A DNA stretch of 16,276 nucleotides, taken from UHGV virus genome UHGV-0160852. The stretch is one strand, 5' to 3'. Below, one piece after another: positions 1 through 8,537 of the stretch (position 1 is the stretch's first letter; each line of letters begins with the position of its first letter). The notes under the pieces were generated by a model. The model saw nothing but the letters and a program-made list of their open reading frames with translations. It had not been told where the DNA came from and did no database searches. Position numbers and translations under genes: made by a program. The stretch comes from a virus.

Positions 1-835
1 AAAACTGAACAGGCTTATGAGTCCAGACGTCGGTATATGGCACTGTGACCGATACGCTGAATGGTCGCCGTAAACGGTAATACTCCTGCTGGAGTTCAGA
101 ATATTTTCTGCTCAACGATTGCCAGGTAGCGACAAGCTGGTGGTGAGGTTTTCCCAGTTCGTTGCGTGAGTGCTTATCCATGGCGATTTTTTGAAACAGA
201 GCCTGCAACTTCAAATAATCGGCTTCATTCGGCAGTTGCCACTGGCTAAGGCCAAACCAGTGGGAAACCATATTTTTTTTACCCGTGGCTTCTGCAATCT
301 GGGCCGACGTCACGCCAAGAGATTCCCGGGCATCCCGGAAGTAAGAAATTAAAGGCGTCATGACGTGTTGCTTTAACTCATTACACTTTGCGGCATATCC
401 ATCGTCTTTGGGCCTGTATGGCCCCTGATAATGGTCGGCAAAAATGATACGCTCAGTGGCCGGGAAATAAGCGCGTAAGCTCTCCTTATTGCAGCCGTTC
501 CATCGCCCTGATGGCTTAGCCCAGATGATATGGTTGAGCAGGTTAAACCGCTCTCTCACCAACAGCTCAATATCCGCTGCCAGGCGGTGCCCACAGAACA
601 GATACATGCTGCCGGCAGGTTTTAACACTCGCCAGAACTGTGCCAGACAGCTATCCAGCCAACGTAAATAGTCCTCGTCCCCCTTCCATTGGTTATCCCA
701 GCCGTTTGGCTTCACCTTAAAATAAGGCGGATCGGTAACAATAAGATCAATGGAGTTATCGGGTAGCGATGGGAGGTATTGCAGGCAATCAGCATTGATT
801 AATTCAATACTGGATATTTTTACAGTATTTTTCAT
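1..835 (-). CDS. DNA N6-adenine methyltransferase (DPPY motif), 3' end truncated by window edge
   Basis: Minus-strand ORF open from ATG (complement of 833-835) to window start; translation begins MKNTVKISSIELINADCLQYLPSLPDNSIDLIVTDPPYF, i.e. the DPPY catalytic motif of N6A/N4C methyltransferases in the position typical of phage Dam-like enzymes. Not in the ORF track because it has no in-window stop. Confidence 0.85.
   Translation of the reverse strand, partial: MKNTVKISSIELINADCLQYLPSLPDNSIDLIVTDPPYFKVKPNGWDNQWKGDEDYLRWLDSCLAQFWRVLKPAGSMYLFCGHRLAADIELLVRERFNLLNHIIWAKPSGRWNGCNKESLRAYFPATERIIFADHYQGPYRPKDDGYAAKCNELKQHVMTPLISYFRDARESLGVTSAQIAEATGKKNMVSHWFGLSQWQLPNEADYLKLQALFQKIAMDKHSRNELGKPHHQLVATWQSLSRKYSELQQEYYRLRRPFSVSVTVPYTDVWTHKPVQF
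808..827. promoter_or_regulatory. LexA-box-like near-palindrome TACTGGATATTTTTACAGTA
   Basis: Matches the enterobacterial SOS box pattern CTG-N10-CAG with AT-rich spacer (consensus TACTGTATATATATACAGTA); lies over codons 3-9 of the methyltransferase gene. Single site, could be chance. Confidence 0.3.
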
Positions 836-975: not shown

Positions 976-995
976 AAGCCCCCATTACTGGGGGC
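976..995 (-). terminator. GC-rich hairpin (GCCCCCA/TGGGGGC) followed by T-run on minus strand
   Basis: Perfect 7-bp stem with 4-nt loop at 978-995; minus-strand reading continues TTTTGCTG. Overlaps the stop codon of the 985..1176 ORF. Confidence 0.4.
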
Positions 996-1176
996 GCTTA
1001 TAACATCCGAACTGATAATCAGATAACCCCGCCATTACCAGCTGCGTAAGTATGAGCTGGCAGCGTTCGCGGCTCAGGTGAGTATTCTGAGCAATCTCCC
1101 CAGCCGTAGCCGGTTTGTCACTTAACTCATCAAAAACAGCCTTGGCTGTTTCCGTCATATTTTGCTGATTTAGCAT
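985..1176 (-). CDS. small hypothetical protein (63 aa), possible winged-helix-like
   Basis: ORF track 985..1236; start trimmed to the ATG at 1176 (MLNQQNMTETAK...), which has GAGG 7 nt upstream. No recognisable family. Confidence 0.5.
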   Translation of the reverse strand: MLNQQNMTETAKAVFDELSDKPATAGEIAQNTHLSRERCQLILTQLVMAGLSDYQFGCYKRPQ

Positions 1177-1278: not shown

Positions 1279-1304
1279 TAAAAAAACCCGCTCGCTGGCG
1301 GGTT
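1279..1304 (-). terminator. rho-independent terminator (tR'-like) downstream of Q
   Basis: Minus-strand stem AACCCGC / GCGGGTT with 6-nt loop followed by a run of 7-8 T; located about 85 bp downstream of the Q stop codon. Confidence 0.7.
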
Positions 1305-1342
1305 AATCAACGTTGAACATACAAAGCCCATCGTTATAGATA

Positions 1343-1370
1343 AAATTACACAAAAACGGCAACTTTGCAA
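1343..1370 (-). promoter_or_regulatory. candidate late promoter (PR'-like): -35 TTGCAA, 16-bp spacer, -10 TAATTT
   Basis: Hexamers read on the minus strand between the Q stop (1387) and the terminator at 1279-1304; arrangement mirrors lambda Q-PR'-6S-tR'. Predicted transcript to the terminator is roughly 65-70 nt. Confidence 0.45.
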
Positions 1371-1386
1371 GTAACGTGTCGCTAAA

Positions 1387-2217
1387 TTATGCGATATTTA
1401 TCAAATCAGACACATTTGTCACACGTTTAAGCTGTGAGTCGGTATAACTCTCTTCCTCAAAGCATTTTGTAACAAGACTTTCATAGAAAGGTTTCCAGCT
1501 GTATCGCCAGGTTCGTTCTGGCAGACCAGGCAGCTCAGAGAGCATACCCCTGTAAGCATTTGAAGACTTAGGACGACTATAACCGCGGCCTTCACAACGT
1601 TTACATACTTTGTAGACAGGCACTCCCTGCAGCTCTGACTCTTTACGGTCCAGGGTTTTTCCCGTACCACCACACTGGCATCGCTTGCTGATTTTCCCGG
1701 TGCCGCCGCATTTGAAGCAGAGAACATGGTCAATCTCTTCCACCTGACGTTTCACTTCAAAATCCGAAGGTGACTGCCCGAGGTCTTTTGCCCATTGCGG
1801 TAATCTCATTTTGTAGTGGCTTTTTTCCACCATTGAGGTGTTTTTTATGAAGCCGGAACCAGAACACTTCCTGCAATCTACGCTGTCAGCTGCAGACGAG
1901 GCATAGTCGTTATAAGCGAACCGAGCTATTATCAGCATACACAGCGGGAACTTCTTCCCTGCTGCTTTTCTTATCGATCGAGGCGCTTTTGATTTTGCAT
2001 ATTCAGCCAACCAACTGACGGATGCCTTTCTGTCGTGTTCGCTGATTCCAGCTTTACCCAAAAACATTGACAGGCCTATTCCTGCCTCTGCCTGTGTCAT
2101 CCCCAATGCGGCCATTACATCTGTCACAGTGAGTTGCTCGCTGGCGGTTGCACGACCGCTATCGGAAATATGCATTCCTTTGGGCGCGAAAAATTTGGGA
2201 ATTGATTCTATATTCAT
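1387..2217 (-). CDS. Q: late-gene antitermination protein Q (lambda Q family) with an internal Cys-rich insertion
   Basis: N-terminus MNIESIPKFFAPKGMHISDSGRATASEQLTVTDVMAALGMTQAEAGIG and C-terminus CKRCEGRGYSRPKSSNAYRGMLSELPGLPERTWRYSWKPFYESLVTKCFEEES closely parallel lambda Q as I recall it (MRLESVAKFHSPKSPMMSDSPRATASDSLSGTDVMAAMGMAQSQAGFG ... GRCKGVGYSRMPASAAYRAV...). Start set at the ATG at 2217 (GGAG 8 nt upstream); the track start at 2235 is GTG. Confidence 0.9.
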   Translation of the reverse strand: MNIESIPKFFAPKGMHISDSGRATASEQLTVTDVMAALGMTQAEAGIGLSMFLGKAGISEHDRKASVSWLAEYAKSKAPRSIRKAAGKKFPLCMLIIARFAYNDYASSAADSVDCRKCSGSGFIKNTSMVEKSHYKMRLPQWAKDLGQSPSDFEVKRQVEEIDHVLCFKCGGTGKISKRCQCGGTGKTLDRKESELQGVPVYKVCKRCEGRGYSRPKSSNAYRGMLSELPGLPERTWRYSWKPFYESLVTKCFEEESYTDSQLKRVTNVSDLINIA

Positions 2218-4752: not shown

Positions 4753-5151
4753 TCAACCCACAGCTGTACATGTATCCACCACTTTTTGATAGCAGACTAT
4801 GGTGATTTCTACCCTGCCTCCTTTGACGATTTCACCCCATTCAATAGCCATACGCTTAACCTGGTTGTCGTCCTCCCAGATACCGGCATAAGTCAAAGCA
4901 TCAAGAAGTGCCTTGTTGTAATTGTCCAGGTCACGCCGGCGATAGTCTGGCGGATAGAGAATAATTTCTACCGCTGCTGGCGCAGTAGATGGTTTTGGTA
5001 TTGCACGCAGTTGCTCAATGATCGCTGACCGTACTGCATGTTTGAATTTACGGCCGGCTGCGCTGACAAGATGTTTACCTTTTGCGGGCCCCTTATTTGG
5101 GGACCGCCAGTAGGTGTTCACGCTGGGTGGGAATGGAAGAATAAATTTCAT
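4753..5151 (-). CDS. rusA: crossover junction endodeoxyribonuclease RusA (Holliday junction resolvase)
   Basis: MKFILPFPPSVNTYWR... and PPDYRRRDLDNYNKALLDALTYAGIWEDDNQV match the RusA family hallmark (RRRDLDN catalytic region); 4-bp ATGA overlap with the upstream gene. Confidence 0.93.
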   Translation of the reverse strand: MKFILPFPPSVNTYWRSPNKGPAKGKHLVSAAGRKFKHAVRSAIIEQLRAIPKPSTAPAAVEIILYPPDYRRRDLDNYNKALLDALTYAGIWEDDNQVKRMAIEWGEIVKGGRVEITIVCYQKVVDTCTAVG

Positions 5152-5624
5152 TCTGCCTCCAGCACTATTTTCAACTCAAACGGAACATCTCCTCCGCAAT
5201 AGCAGAGCGGGCCAAGGTCAGACATGAGGCTCCACAGGGTCATTGACGTATAGCCATTTTCGTCTGTTACCGGGGGCGAAAAGTCCCCGAAGATCCCCGG
5301 GTGCTGGATTCGATTCTGCTCGTGTTGTTTTTCCAAATGTCTGAGGGAAACTTCATTAAGTTTCACTTTTACGATGCTGTTGAGATTGACCGATATTTCT
5401 CTGGCCAACAGCGAAGGGGTGATACTGATACCGCGAGAAACCCCGCGGGTGATTGTGATAACACCCTTTTTCTCCAACGCCTTGAGGTGCGTTGCTGCTG
5501 CATTGGGGGACCGGCACCCCAGCATGCCGGTCAGTTCGTAAGTTGTAGGCGGAAAACCATGTATACGCTGATATTCGATCAGGAGGTCCAGTACCTCCTG
5601 CTGCCTTAAGGTCAAGGAAGTCAT
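5148..5624 (-). CDS. LexA N-terminal DNA-binding-domain homolog lacking the S24 peptidase domain
   Basis: MTSLTLRQQEVLDLLIEYQRIHGFPPTTYELTGMLGCRSPNAAATHLKALEKKGVITITRGVSRGI parallels E. coli LexA residues 1-70 ([66 protein letters not shown]); the C-terminal ~85 aa has no Ser/Lys peptidase signature. Start at the ATG at 5624 (GAGGAG upstream, ATGA overlap with the MTase stop); alternative ATG at 5651. Confidence 0.8.
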   Translation of the reverse strand: MTSLTLRQQEVLDLLIEYQRIHGFPPTTYELTGMLGCRSPNAAATHLKALEKKGVITITRGVSRGISITPSLLAREISVNLNSIVKVKLNEVSLRHLEKQHEQNRIQHPGIFGDFSPPVTDENGYTSMTLWSLMSDLGPLCYCGGDVPFELKIVLEAE

Positions 5625-7591
5625 GCTGCCTGCTCCTCTCTGTTCACGCACATTTCGGGTAAGTTGGCGCGAACCAGCGCTTCGGCGAACGGCGGCGGGA
5701 CGGCATTGCCACAGCGCGCAACCTGCTTATCTTTCGCGTATTTCACGCCGCGGTAATCCTGGTCAATGATGTACCACTCGGGGAAGCCCTGCGCCCGGTA
5801 AAGTTCGTGTGGCTGCAGCATGCGCATGCCGATATCAACGATGCGGTAAGTCACTCCGCCGATTTCCACCAGACCGGTGCATTCCTCTCCGCAGTATTCC
5901 TGCAGGAACGACAGCACCTGCTGCGCTCGCTCTTCGTCATAGTCCTCGACTGCCAGAGTCGTTTTAACCTCGCCTACGTGCTGGCCACCAGCAGTGATAG
6001 TCGGCATCGGCTCGTCAGTGCGCTGGCCATCGCGGCATGTACCACGGAGCTTGATCAGATGAGACGTAACCATTGCGGCATCAGCCTTTGTCGTCATGGT
6101 TTGCAATGGCTCGCTAACGTCACGTGGCCTGCTCTGCCCAGCGCGACCGCCAACACCAACAATCTGAGCAGTAACCAGCGCATGATGATCGACGGTAGTA
6201 ACTGAATGAGCTGGTTCATCCAAGTCAATACCGGCGCCCTGATAATTCCCGCCATAGTGTTTCGCCAGGAATGCGGATACCAGTTGCGATTTACCGCCGC
6301 CGCCCGCGGTGATTGTTGCGCTAGGTTCATCCGCCCGGTGTCCGATGCTTGCGCCGAACTGCCGGGCGATAACCGGAGCGACGACACAGGCGCGCGATTC
6401 TTTCAGGATGGTGTGAGCGGGTTTATCGAGAGGGCGTGGTTTAGCCTGGTACTCGCTGCCGCCATTGCCAGCCAGGAACGGCGCCAGCTCTGCTTCAACA
6501 ATACCCAGAGCGTGACCATTCCCGCCCGGGCGTTTTGCGGTACCGGCCGTCACCGTCGGCAACGGATCGGTGACTTCCTGCCCGGTAGCTCCGGTTCGGA
6601 ATTTTGTCAGATGAGGTACCGCAATTGCGTAGCCGTGGGTTTTCGTAATCGTCTGTAGCGGATCGTCCAGCGCCTGTCCCCGGAAACAGTCGTAATTGCC
6701 ACGTGTCGTTGTGTGATTGCACTTCACAATGAATGGCGAAGCACTTTCGATAACAAAGCGCTGAATGCCGCGGGCAATCCGTTTTAGCGTATTCTCAGCC
6801 AGTGACTTTTTGCGACCGAAGATGCTCGGCGCGGGGATTGACCAGTCTATGCATTCCGCAGCTGTACGCCACGGCTCAAGCTGGCCCGCCAGCACGGCGG
6901 CAGACTTCGGATCCCCGTGCGTGGCTTCCGGCCAGACTATCGGTTTCCCGTCCCGGCGCATCACCATGAAGAACCGCTTACGGATGGTCGGCGCGCCATA
7001 ATCGCAGGCGCGCAGCTCGCGAAAATCGACGACATAACCCAGCCCGGCAATTAAGCGCTGGGCCTGCTCGCTATCCGGTGAAAACTCCAGAAACTCGCAA
7101 CACTCCACCAGTGCAGGATGATCTGCTGGAATACCGGTGGTAAGCATCCCGACAAATGCATTGAAAGTTTCACCGATGCGTGCCGGATCCGGGCGCATTT
7201 CTGCCGCGAGTAACGGGCCCCACGTTTTAAACTCTTCGACGTTTTCCAGCATCATGACTCGCGGGCCAACATCCAGCGCCCAACGAATGACGATCCATGC
7301 CAGCCCTCGAATAGCTTTCTCTACTGGTTTAGCACCTTTCGCTTTAGAAAAGTGACGACAGTCAGGCGAGAACCATGCCAGGCCGACAGGCTTGCCACTG
7401 GTAGCGGCTAATGGGGATACATCAAACACACTTTCGCAATAGTGAAGCGTGTCGGGATGGTTAGTGCGGTGCATAGCAACGGCGTTAACATCGTGGTTAA
7501 TAGCAATATCAACACTGCGCCCTATTGCCAGTTCAATACCTGTACTGGCGCCACCGCCGCCAGCGAAATTATCGACAATAATCTCACGCAT
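5621..7591 (-). CDS. DNA cytosine-5 methyltransferase with an unusually long, internally repetitive variable region
   Basis: Motif I FAGGGG, PC motif FSPDCRHFSKAKG, ENV motif MMLENVEEF, motif VIII-like TIRKRFFMV and C-terminal motif X CGNAVPPP. Between the catalytic halves about 350 aa carry seven repeats of (D/E)-x-P-x-x-T-[IVM]-T. Confidence 0.93.
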   Translation of the reverse strand: MREIIVDNFAGGGGASTGIELAIGRSVDIAINHDVNAVAMHRTNHPDTLHYCESVFDVSPLAATSGKPVGLAWFSPDCRHFSKAKGAKPVEKAIRGLAWIVIRWALDVGPRVMMLENVEEFKTWGPLLAAEMRPDPARIGETFNAFVGMLTTGIPADHPALVECCEFLEFSPDSEQAQRLIAGLGYVVDFRELRACDYGAPTIRKRFFMVMRRDGKPIVWPEATHGDPKSAAVLAGQLEPWRTAAECIDWSIPAPSIFGRKKSLAENTLKRIARGIQRFVIESASPFIVKCNHTTTRGNYDCFRGQALDDPLQTITKTHGYAIAVPHLTKFRTGATGQEVTDPLPTVTAGTAKRPGGNGHALGIVEAELAPFLAGNGGSEYQAKPRPLDKPAHTILKESRACVVAPVIARQFGASIGHRADEPSATITAGGGGKSQLVSAFLAKHYGGNYQGAGIDLDEPAHSVTTVDHHALVTAQIVGVGGRAGQSRPRDVSEPLQTMTTKADAAMVTSHLIKLRGTCRDGQRTDEPMPTITAGGQHVGEVKTTLAVEDYDEERAQQVLSFLQEYCGEECTGLVEIGGVTYRIVDIGMRMLQPHELYRAQGFPEWYIIDQDYRGVKYAKDKQVARCGNAVPPPFAEALVRANLPEMCVNREEQAA

Positions 7592-8537
7592 GAGCGGTCC
7601 CCCTCATGCTGCCGACCAGCCCACCAGCAACGGTGATGATTTCGCTGGTGGGCACCCGCTCCAGCCACAACTGGTTAATGTGGGCCTTCAGCTTGTTCTG
7701 CTGGGAGAATTCCAGATCCCCTGCGCCTTGTACCTGTCCGAAGATGAGACCAACTTCCAGTGGCCAGATCCGGGATTCAGCCTCAGCTAATGATGCAACC
7801 GCATCGGGGATGATCACTTCAGGAGACTGAACTGGCGAAGCTGGTGGCAGGAATTTTGCTGCAGCAAACTCAGCCAAAGCCATACTTGCGCGCCCTTTCG
7901 CCTCAAGCTCTATACGATCGATATAGCTAAAGCGCTCTCCGCACCATGTCTTATCAAATATCACGATTGCACCAGCAAAGAAGGCGCTGGTGGGTTTCTG
8001 TTTATCATCCGCCGGCACAAACCAGGTCGGGAGATCGAAACCAATACGACCACGGATAAAACACACATGATCGGCATCTTCTGGCCACCATGTCTCGCTT
8101 GTCGCTGACTTCAGCAGGAAAACATAGCGCCCGCCCTTTTCTCGCTGCTCAGATGCATAACTCATGATGTGAGTCATGCCGGTGACTGCCTGTTTTTCGT
8201 GGTACTGAGAACGGCTATACGGTGGATTACCAAATCCTGCGCCACCAAGTTCTTCAAGGCGAGCGGACCAGTCCTGTGTTAAAGCGTTATCTTCAGCGGT
8301 ATACCATGCGGGGCATTTTGCATTGCTGTCGTCTGCAAACAGGTCCAGTACAAGCGGGCCAAACATAGCGTTAACGCCCCAGAACAGCAGATCAGGGGTA
8401 CGCCATTGATCCCCGACTTCTTTTAAATAATGCGCACTACGCTGGCGCTGTTCCTCAAGTGCCAGGCAATAAGGGCTGACGGTTTTTGTTAAAGTTTGCT
8501 CTTCTGCGGTCATAGCTTCTTGTACTTCCTGACTCAT
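7584..8537 (-). CDS. phage Dam-like DNA N6-adenine methyltransferase (NPPY motif) with C-terminal extension
   Basis: WRTPDLLFWGVNAMFGPLVLDLFADDSNAKCPAWYT and GFGNPPYSR match the phage N6-adenine methyltransferase (Dam) family; 8-bp overlap with the C5-MTase start. Confidence 0.8.
   Translation of the reverse strand: MSQEVQEAMTAEEQTLTKTVSPYCLALEEQRQRSAHYLKEVGDQWRTPDLLFWGVNAMFGPLVLDLFADDSNAKCPAWYTAEDNALTQDWSARLEELGGAGFGNPPYSRSQYHEKQAVTGMTHIMSYASEQREKGGRYVFLLKSATSETWWPEDADHVCFIRGRIGFDLPTWFVPADDKQKPTSAFFAGAIVIFDKTWCGERFSYIDRIELEAKGRASMALAEFAAAKFLPPASPVQSPEVIIPDAVASLAEAESRIWPLEVGLIFGQVQGAGDLEFSQQNKLKAHINQLWLERVPTSEIITVAGGLVGSMRGTAHA

Follow-up and report, generated by a model that had tools for sequence, protein, structure and literature searches.

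A long-form Q antiterminator gene and its predicted late promoter in a lambdoid Klebsiella prophage genome

The virus genome UHGV-0160852 was analysed as a stretch of 16,276 nucleotides (nt), the whole of which is referred to here as the window, and positions 1279 to 2217 of its minus strand hold the gene for an antitermination protein of the Q-lambda family, followed by a promoter-like sequence, a pause element and a terminator. This cassette is real, intact and ordinary. It is very probably the late-gene regulatory switch of a lambdoid Klebsiella prophage, made up of a common long form of Q and its cognate pR' promoter downstream. The preliminary description of this DNA had taken the protein for a lambda-type Q carrying an inserted, DnaJ-like block of cysteine repeats, with a compact pR'/tR' module behind it. 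The features of the gene and of the module are the following.

1387-2217, minus strand: Q antiterminator gene, 276 amino acids (aa), long form of the Q-lambda family (PF03589, phrog_127, matches to lambda Q in the Protein Data Bank (PDB), AlphaFold2 fold)
2068-2217, minus strand: residues 1-50 of Q, counterpart of the nozzle (torus) segment of lambda Q (alignment to lambda Q)
1681-1875, minus strand: residues 115-179, the segment that lambda Q lacks, with knuckle 1, a long beta-hairpin (123-166) and knuckle 2 (two-piece alignment)
1852-1875, minus strand: knuckle 1, CRKCSGSG, from C115, in the extra segment
1696-1719, minus strand: knuckle 2, CFKCGGTG, from C167, in the extra segment
1582-1680, minus strand: residues 180-212, lambda-type zinc-ribbon arm with knuckles 3 and 4, aligning with C118/C121 and C144/C147 of lambda Q
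1660-1680, minus strand: knuckle 3, CQCGGTG, from C180, aligning with CRDCHGTG of lambda Q
1582-1605, minus strand: knuckle 4, CKRCEGRG, from C205, aligning with CGRCKGVG of lambda Q
1370-1365, minus strand: -35 hexamer of the predicted pR', TTGCAA, invariant in 47 distinct modules and in the position of lambda TTGACT and phi80 TTGCAT
1364-1349, minus strand: 16-nt spacer AGTTGCCGTTTTTGTG, putative Q-binding element (lineage-specific conservation)
1348-1343, minus strand: -10 hexamer of the predicted pR', TAATTT; most relatives have TAAATT, as in lambda
1342-1336, minus strand: TATCTAT, between the -10 hexamer and the pause element (from the sequence)
1335-1327, minus strand: predicted sigma-dependent pause element AACGAT with a discriminator-like GGG, together AACGATGGG, identical to lambda pR' +1 to +9
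1309-1335, minus strand: initial transcribed region, +1 to +27, able to fold into a hairpin at the RNA 5' end (conserved outside the Q lineage as well)
1280-1304, minus strand: tR' intrinsic terminator, stem-loop 1304-1285 and T7 run 1286-1280 (terminator scan)

The open reading frame (ORF) of Q starts with the ATG at 2217, preceded by GGAG at a distance of 7 nt, and ends with the stop codon at 1389-1387; it is intact, and in an alignment of 56 long-form homologues it was found to carry every invariant residue of the family. The protein scores 153.5 bits against the PF03589 (Q-lambda family) profile, for which the curated cut-off is 26.7 (E 1.7e-45, two matched stretches), and it matches phrog_127 ("anti-termination protein Q-like") end to end, residues 1-268 lying on profile positions 1-252/253 (E 3.5e-95). 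In a phmmer search of the PDB, the sole significant solved-structure matches were lambda Q chains (E 3e-43), the alignment coming in two pieces that join residues 1-122 of the window Q to 1-125 of lambda Q and residues 179-267 to 117-206. The homology covers the full length of lambda Q, including the N-terminal nozzle-forming segment and the C-terminal helix. It had been stated from the letters that the protein aligns with lambda Q at both ends and is about 70 aa longer, and this holds: the two are 276 and 207 aa long (a difference of 69 aa), with about 64 extra residues internal, and in the multiple alignment 64 of residues 112-178 stand opposite gaps in lambda Q. Database pipelines already label relatives of the window Q "antitermination protein".

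An AlphaFold2 model built on the 56-sequence alignment has a mean predicted local distance difference test (pLDDT) value of 84.6, with residues 110-215 at 79-92, and its best fold match is lambda Q (7ubn_Q). The predicted fold consists of a helical body with a helix-turn-helix and a zinc-ribbon arm with four cysteines, as the Q-lambda family requires. The nozzle that lambda Q places on the RNA exit channel is formed by refolding of its residues 1-44 (PMC9388147). Positions 1-4 of the Q-binding element are recognised by the helix-turn-helix of the helical body and positions 11-13 by the zinc-ribbon arm, whose tip touches sigma region 4, and residues 110-112, 117 and 122-126 at the base of the ribbon contact the beta' zinc-binding domain (PMC9388147 and a preprint). 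The parts of the window Q that come closest to lambda Q are residues 1-50, the best-conserved segment, with 28 of 50 positions identical (56%), and the zinc-ribbon arm, with 19 of 36 (53%), which supports a nozzle mechanism common to the two proteins; by this comparison, residues 1-50 of the window Q would form the nozzle.

All four of the cysteine motifs quoted in the preliminary description are present, at residues 115, 167, 180 and 205 of the window Q. Only the first two belong to the extra region, however, whereas motifs 3 and 4 are lambda's own, and the description of them as of the CxxC(x)GxG type suits three motifs but not knuckle 3, which is CxC instead of CxxC. The two CxxCxGxG knuckles of lambda Q hold one zinc (PMC9388147), and what the window Q has in addition comes down to knuckles 1 and 2 with the 44 residues that separate them. 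The edge of this extra segment is arbitrary within the repeat, since knuckles 1 and 3 can both be aligned with the first knuckle of lambda Q. In the AlphaFold2 model, two strands (123-135 and 154-166) lie between knuckles 1 and 2 and carry two short helices at their tip (pLDDT 79-92), and the arm itself runs in the order knuckle 3, strand, helix, strand, knuckle 4. The extra knuckle pair, residues 115-179, most likely makes up a second zinc site at the base of the arm; placed there, beside the counterparts of the residues with which lambda Q contacts beta', the extra module could extend or replace this contact or reach DNA. As to how the knuckles might share their metal, the hairpin topology of the model would favour, as a guess, the pairs 1+2 and 3+4 over a nested, DnaJ-type arrangement of 1+4 and 2+3. 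A comparison of the two halves of the cysteine block gave similarity at the level of the motifs only and nothing that pointed to a recent tandem duplication.

A homologue search of a large protein collection returned 79 clusters, and all the full-length ones among them, 249-276 aa long, carry all four knuckles. The clusters come from Klebsiella, E. coli, Salmonella, Citrobacter, Cronobacter, Atlantibacter, Cedecea, Yersinia, Serratia, Pantoea, Photorhabdus, Xenorhabdus and Morganella. In the 56-homologue alignment no knuckle varies in its cysteines or in its first two glycines. Knuckles 2 and 3 are always 13 residues apart and knuckles 3 and 4 are 25 or 26 apart, while the distance between knuckles 1 and 2 ranges from 21 to 57 residues (21 in the mEp010 Q, locus L208, 401-1129; 35-43 in SfV, Photorhabdus and Xenorhabdus; 52-57 in the window Q and phi80). 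The same four-knuckle pattern is seen in the Q proteins of phi80, SfV, Gifsy-2, mEp010 and a Proteus phage. The block is therefore not special to the protein studied here, as had first been supposed; the preliminary description had itself allowed that an alignment with the Q families might reveal the cysteine motifs to be normal for the subfamily, and this is essentially what the alignment shows.

How common the long form is among phages was gauged in a phage collection holding 250 records with a relative, of which an evenly spaced sample of 60 was measured. About half of the sampled genes are long (747-830 nt) and about half short (618 nt), and the long ones in phages include phi80 gp17, Gifsy-2 Q, SfV Q and the Qs of Stx2c phages. 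A neighbour-joining tree of 17 representatives, computed from 195 shared alignment columns and rooted at its midpoint, places the short form as one shallow clade among deep long-form branches: on the shared core the Qs of lambda, P22 and HK022 are 96-98% identical to one another, and identity among the long forms, or between them and lambda Q, is only 35-55%. Given this topology, the simplest reading of the tree would be that the four-knuckle form is the older one and that the lambda lineage lost knuckles 1 and 2 by deletion. The pair 1+2 with its hairpin would then be a standard part of the family, probably ancestral, and lambda Q the exception.

Two oddities of naming and architecture turned up among the clusters. 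A 320-aa cluster named 'phage endolysin' (P0056; 38 contigs, E. coli) joins a glycoside hydrolase 19 domain (PF00182) to a Q-family match with 69% identity over 55% of the window Q, and looks like a fusion left by a deletion in a defective prophage. Two long-form Qs from Xenorhabdus (P0058 and P0063) are named 'molecular chaperone' at source, a name that presumably stems from their DnaJ-like knuckles and is very probably wrong.

Downstream of the Q gene, the promoter-like arrangement TTGCAA-16-TAATTT pointed out in the preliminary description is present and conserved. A consensus promoter scan of 700-2500 called no site, and since the hexamers are weak and were missed in this way, the promoter call rests on homology and conservation. 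Seven nucleotides past the -10 hexamer begins AACGATGGG, which occurs once in the window against 0.13 expected; at lambda pR', AACGAT at +1 to +6 is the sigma-dependent pause element, and GGG comes next (PMC4005639). By this correspondence the transcription start is predicted at or beside 1335. The RNA fold of +1 to +60 has an energy of -18.8 kcal/mol, and with a start near 1335 the terminated RNA is predicted to be about 53-56 nt long instead of the 65-70 nt proposed earlier. The view of the module as compact stands, with a predicted pause element, with tR' and with a predicted transcript much shorter than the 194 nt of lambda. A permissive Rfam search of 780-1420 brought up Trp_leader at 26 against 41 bits; it was rejected as a likeness of tR' to the trp attenuator hairpin.

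The conservation of these elements was measured in IMG/VR contigs whose Q proteins are 74-99% identical to the window Q, which gave 47 distinct ungapped modules. Pairwise identity among these amounts to 100% in the -35 hexamer, 95% in the spacer, 98% in the pause element with its GGG and 90% in +10 to +27, and just past the T run it drops to about 30%; the T run starts at +49 in 43 of 59 related modules. The -35 hexamer, the spacer, the pause element and the terminator spacing are all kept far better than the neighbouring coding DNA. Conservation throughout the module, followed by its collapse past the T run, argues that Q, its promoter, the pause site and the terminator move together as a unit and that a mosaic joint sits directly behind tR'. 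Within the window-type Q lineage the spacer is conserved, and it is different in the SfV-type and in the third lineage (see below), as would be expected of a Q-specific binding site; in lambda the Q site lies between -35 and -10 (PMC9388147). At five loci (L038, L055, L092, L074 and L077), what comes after the conserved promoter, pause element and leader is unrelated sequence that has no hairpin-plus-T-run of the usual kind at +49, and there the terminator is either replaced or farther off.

The analysis itself shows the homology, the architecture and how well every DNA element is conserved; zinc binding, the part played by the extra module and the biochemical steps of this cassette are what we infer, the steps following those of lambda. 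Q would be the last gene of the rightward early operon, with its cognate pR' immediately downstream. RNA polymerase would initiate at about 1335, sigma-70 would re-bind the -10-like AACGAT(GGG) at +1 to +9, and the complex would pause at about +16/17. In cells without Q, transcription would end at tR' and an RNA of about 55 nt would be released. When present, Q would bind the lineage-specific element between -35 and -10 and use its helical body and zinc-ribbon arm to dock on the paused complex, whereupon its conserved N-terminal 50 residues would refold into a nozzle on the RNA exit channel. The polymerase modified in this manner would pass tR' and a second terminator at 995-978, and would transcribe the gene of a 63-aa protein and that of a DNA methylase, followed by the HNH, TerB-like, lysis and packaging genes beyond the window.

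Other explanations were considered for the protein, for the module as a whole and for the RNA it would release. A cysteine-rich domain derived from DnaJ and inserted into a lambda-like Q, conferring a chaperone-like or new protein-binding activity, appears very improbable. DnaJ-like is a fair description of the knuckles, and the isolated arm has as its sole fold matches, weak ones, the DnaJ cysteine-rich domain. Membership in the DnaJ family, however, fails: the PF00684 profile of that domain scores 28.4 bits, under its curated cut-off of 32.7, and a Pfam scan of the window Q found no J domain and no DnaJ C-terminal substrate-binding domains. Compared with DnaJ, the protein has three canonical CxxCxGxG repeats and one CxCxGxG, and the gap of 44 residues between knuckles 1 and 2 is unlike DnaJ. 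Nor do we give much credence to the notion that the cassette is inactive, the hairpin at 1304-1285 merely ending the early operon, the hexamers being no promoter, and the late genes being reached by another route or the prophage being cryptic. It draws on the hexamers, which match the consensus at 7 of 12 positions and escaped the scan, and on the -10 hexamer TAATTT, a weaker one than most relatives have (TAAATT or TATATT). Yet the promoter and terminator elements out-conserve the adjacent coding DNA, AACGATGGG is identical to its lambda counterpart, the ORF retains all invariant family residues, and the nearest relative of the window, Klebsiella phage Kp4866-6, is a deposited phage genome of 45.5 kb. 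The poor match of the hexamers nonetheless weighs against our reading of the cassette as a late-gene switch, as do several other points. The terminator begins about 32 nt past the start, much nearer than in lambda, which bears on whether Q could be loaded and the RNA protected in time; the putative Q site was assigned to the spacer by position alone; the AlphaFold2 model is zinc-free, and any pairing of its cysteines by metal is a guess from its topology; and the polarity of the deletion in the lambda lineage hangs on a small, midpoint-rooted neighbour-joining tree.

The remaining alternative concerns the leader, which might be conserved for pause-escape determinants, as a recombination joint or for a function of the RNA itself. 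Its first 27-30 bases are 90% identical to those of the SfV module, despite diverged Q genes (58% identical) and promoter regions (about 50%). A scan of viral contigs for AACGATGGGCWTTGTRTGT found at least 120 loci, and the leader (also seen at L084 2233-2262 and loci L087-L205) stands behind three Q lineages, the window type, the SfV type and a Gifsy-2/phi80-like type (239-276 aa), whose proteins are only 33-47% identical and each of which has its own -35/-10 spacer; the shared leader is independent of Q specificity. The SfV-type module occurs in 889 of 5426 complete E. coli genomes (16%), with no feature annotated on it. The transcript from pR' to tR', about 55 nt long, could on this evidence be a constitutive prophage small RNA that acts in trans beyond being a by-product, in the manner of StxS, a functional small RNA from the tR'-terminated transcript of Stx phages (PMC7547250), and we regard this as unlikely. 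Its supports include the strong terminator at the RNA end, with a U7 tail and an A/U-rich stretch before it, and a predicted 5'-terminal hairpin, AACG.UGGGC...GUUCA.ACGUU, which RNAalifold kept in 29 of 30 distinct leaders through G-C/G-U switches at two pairs. The same program showed no two-sided compensatory changes in these 30 sequences; the pause element fixes the 5' arm and so leaves no room for them, and with one-sided changes only the RNA structure is not proven. The lambda leader also folds into a 5' hairpin (bases 2-25), with a different 3' arm, and the predicted fold of the phi80 leader is not 5'-terminal. Conservation could, moreover, be explained at the DNA level, as the 20 bp past the lambda pause site affect Q-dependent escape (PMC4005639), and a conserved stretch at a mosaic junction may equally be a recombination joint. 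Rfam at gathering thresholds and a tRNA search had no match in the whole window, and a search of one collection of papers turned up none on the leader RNA. That this RNA (about 55 nt, and 65 nt in the SfV type) is a widespread, unannotated prophage small RNA, or else an RNA element for the loading of long-form Q, is therefore put forward only as a doubtful candidate beside the late-gene switch.

Beyond tR', the window contains the following features of the predicted Q-dependent unit.

985-1176, minus strand: gene of a 63-aa protein, SfV orf47 homologue and first gene of the Q-dependent unit (phrog_331, E 2.5e-32)
978-995, minus strand: second terminator-like hairpin, overlapping the stop codon of the 63-aa gene (terminator scan)
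2-835, minus strand: N6/N4 DNA methyltransferase, 278 of 359 aa, truncated by the window edge (PF01555, E 7e-17)

The first genes beyond the terminator are indeed, as had been described, those of a 63-aa protein (ORF 1176-985) and a methyltransferase (from 835). Pfam winged-helix matches of the 63-aa protein are weak and under the cut-offs. The hairpin at 995-978 has 7 pairs, 6 of them G-C, followed by TTTTGCTG. The intergenic stretch of about 140 nt before the methylase, within 836-1000 of the minus strand, is strongly structured (RNA fold z -4.4, with 0 of 200 shuffles as stable), and positions 901-991 are 88% identical to the equivalent spot in cdtI, mEp460 and Stx2c phages.

The window is 98.3% identical to Kp4866-6, whose record is unannotated and whose full-length copy of the methylase (359 aa) matches the DNA methyltransferase PHROGs. 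Past this gene, Kp4866-6 carries an HNH endonuclease, a TerB-like protein, two holins, an endolysin, a spanin and the terminase subunits, which places the lysis cassette about 3 kb further along what would be the same transcription unit, beyond the window edge. The earlier remark that a methyltransferase follows "rather than a lysis cassette" is misleading in this respect, as SfV and mEp460 have the same order and then a holin. On its other side, the early region of the window runs from a CI-like repressor on the plus strand to Cro-like, CII-like and replication genes, and onward through Dam and C5 methylases, a protein with a LexA DNA-binding domain, RusA, KilA-N and DUF968/HNH to Q. There are three DNA methyltransferase genes in the 16-kb stretch, all on the minus strand, at 2-835, 5621-7591 and 7584-8537, of the N6/N4, C5 and Dam types; the C5 enzyme is 656 aa long, and only its first 120 residues or so match the profile. 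The protein with the LexA DNA-binding domain (167 aa, E 3e-19) is encoded at 5148-5651 on the minus strand, in a nin-like region between the C5 methylase and RusA.

Among the members of the family, only lambda Q has solved structures, and it appears to be an atypical short form; what has been concluded from these structures may therefore not apply to a typical Q. A second knuckle pair and a hairpin of variable length, beside what in lambda is the contact with the beta' zinc-binding domain, are present across most of the diversity of the family, and this pair with its hairpin has no counterpart in any solved Q structure. The leader common to the Q lineages is, for its part, a candidate for a prophage small RNA or for a cis element of Q loading.

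Several known systems resemble the cassette in part. The DnaJ cysteine-rich domain (PF00684; PDB 1EXK) has similar repeated CxxCxGxG knuckles and gives a sub-threshold profile match, whereas the knuckles of the window Q lie inside a DNA- and RNA-polymerase-binding protein that has no J domain. StxS, too, is short, comes from a constitutive late promoter and in lysogens terminates at tR', as the leader RNA is predicted to do; it differs in being cut by RNase E from a 258-nt precursor and in that its Hfq binding and its targets have been demonstrated, the window RNA being a prediction only (PMC7547250). Lambda Q (PDB 4MO1, 7UBJ-7UBN) has the zinc-ribbon arm and the helix-turn-helix body in common with the window Q and is without residues 115-179. 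Lambda pR' has the identical AACGATGGG at +1 to +9, and its -10 hexamer TAAATT is found in relatives; its 17-nt spacer is of another sequence, its leader is 194 nt long against about 55 nt, and, unlike in the window, the lysis genes follow directly.

Closer likenesses are offered by SfV and phi80, since the downstream gene order is already annotated in the former and the compact module in the latter. SfV (NC_003444) has the order orf45 HNH, Q, terminator, orf47 (64 aa), orf48 DNA methylase, terminator, S and R, which is the order of the window from 3291 down to 1, and mEp460, cdtI and Stx2c phages are laid out as SfV is. The 63-aa gene and intergenic DNA are 79-88% identical between SfV and the window, and the terminator is of the same type; the SfV Q, however, has 250 aa and is about 33% identical to the window Q, and its promoter spacer is TTTTCAAAAAATATGGA, a difference that implies a different Q specificity. 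In phi80, gp17 (JX871397) is a member of the Q-lambda family with 269 aa against 276 and 41-44% identity, and its knuckles at 115/169/182/207 correspond to those at 115/167/180/205 of the window Q. This Q protein is reportedly the subject of Guo and Roberts 2004. The phi80 record annotates a pR' laid out as TTGCAT, a Q site in a 17-nt spacer, TAGATT, 7 nt and then AACGCTGGG (AACGCT-GGG), with a terminator 53-81 nt past the -10 hexamer, about 18 nt farther than that of the window. The two modules differ in the transcribed region after GGG and in the spacer, the latter presumably conferring a different DNA specificity, and in phi80 the lysis genes come about 300 nt later, without an intervening methylase.

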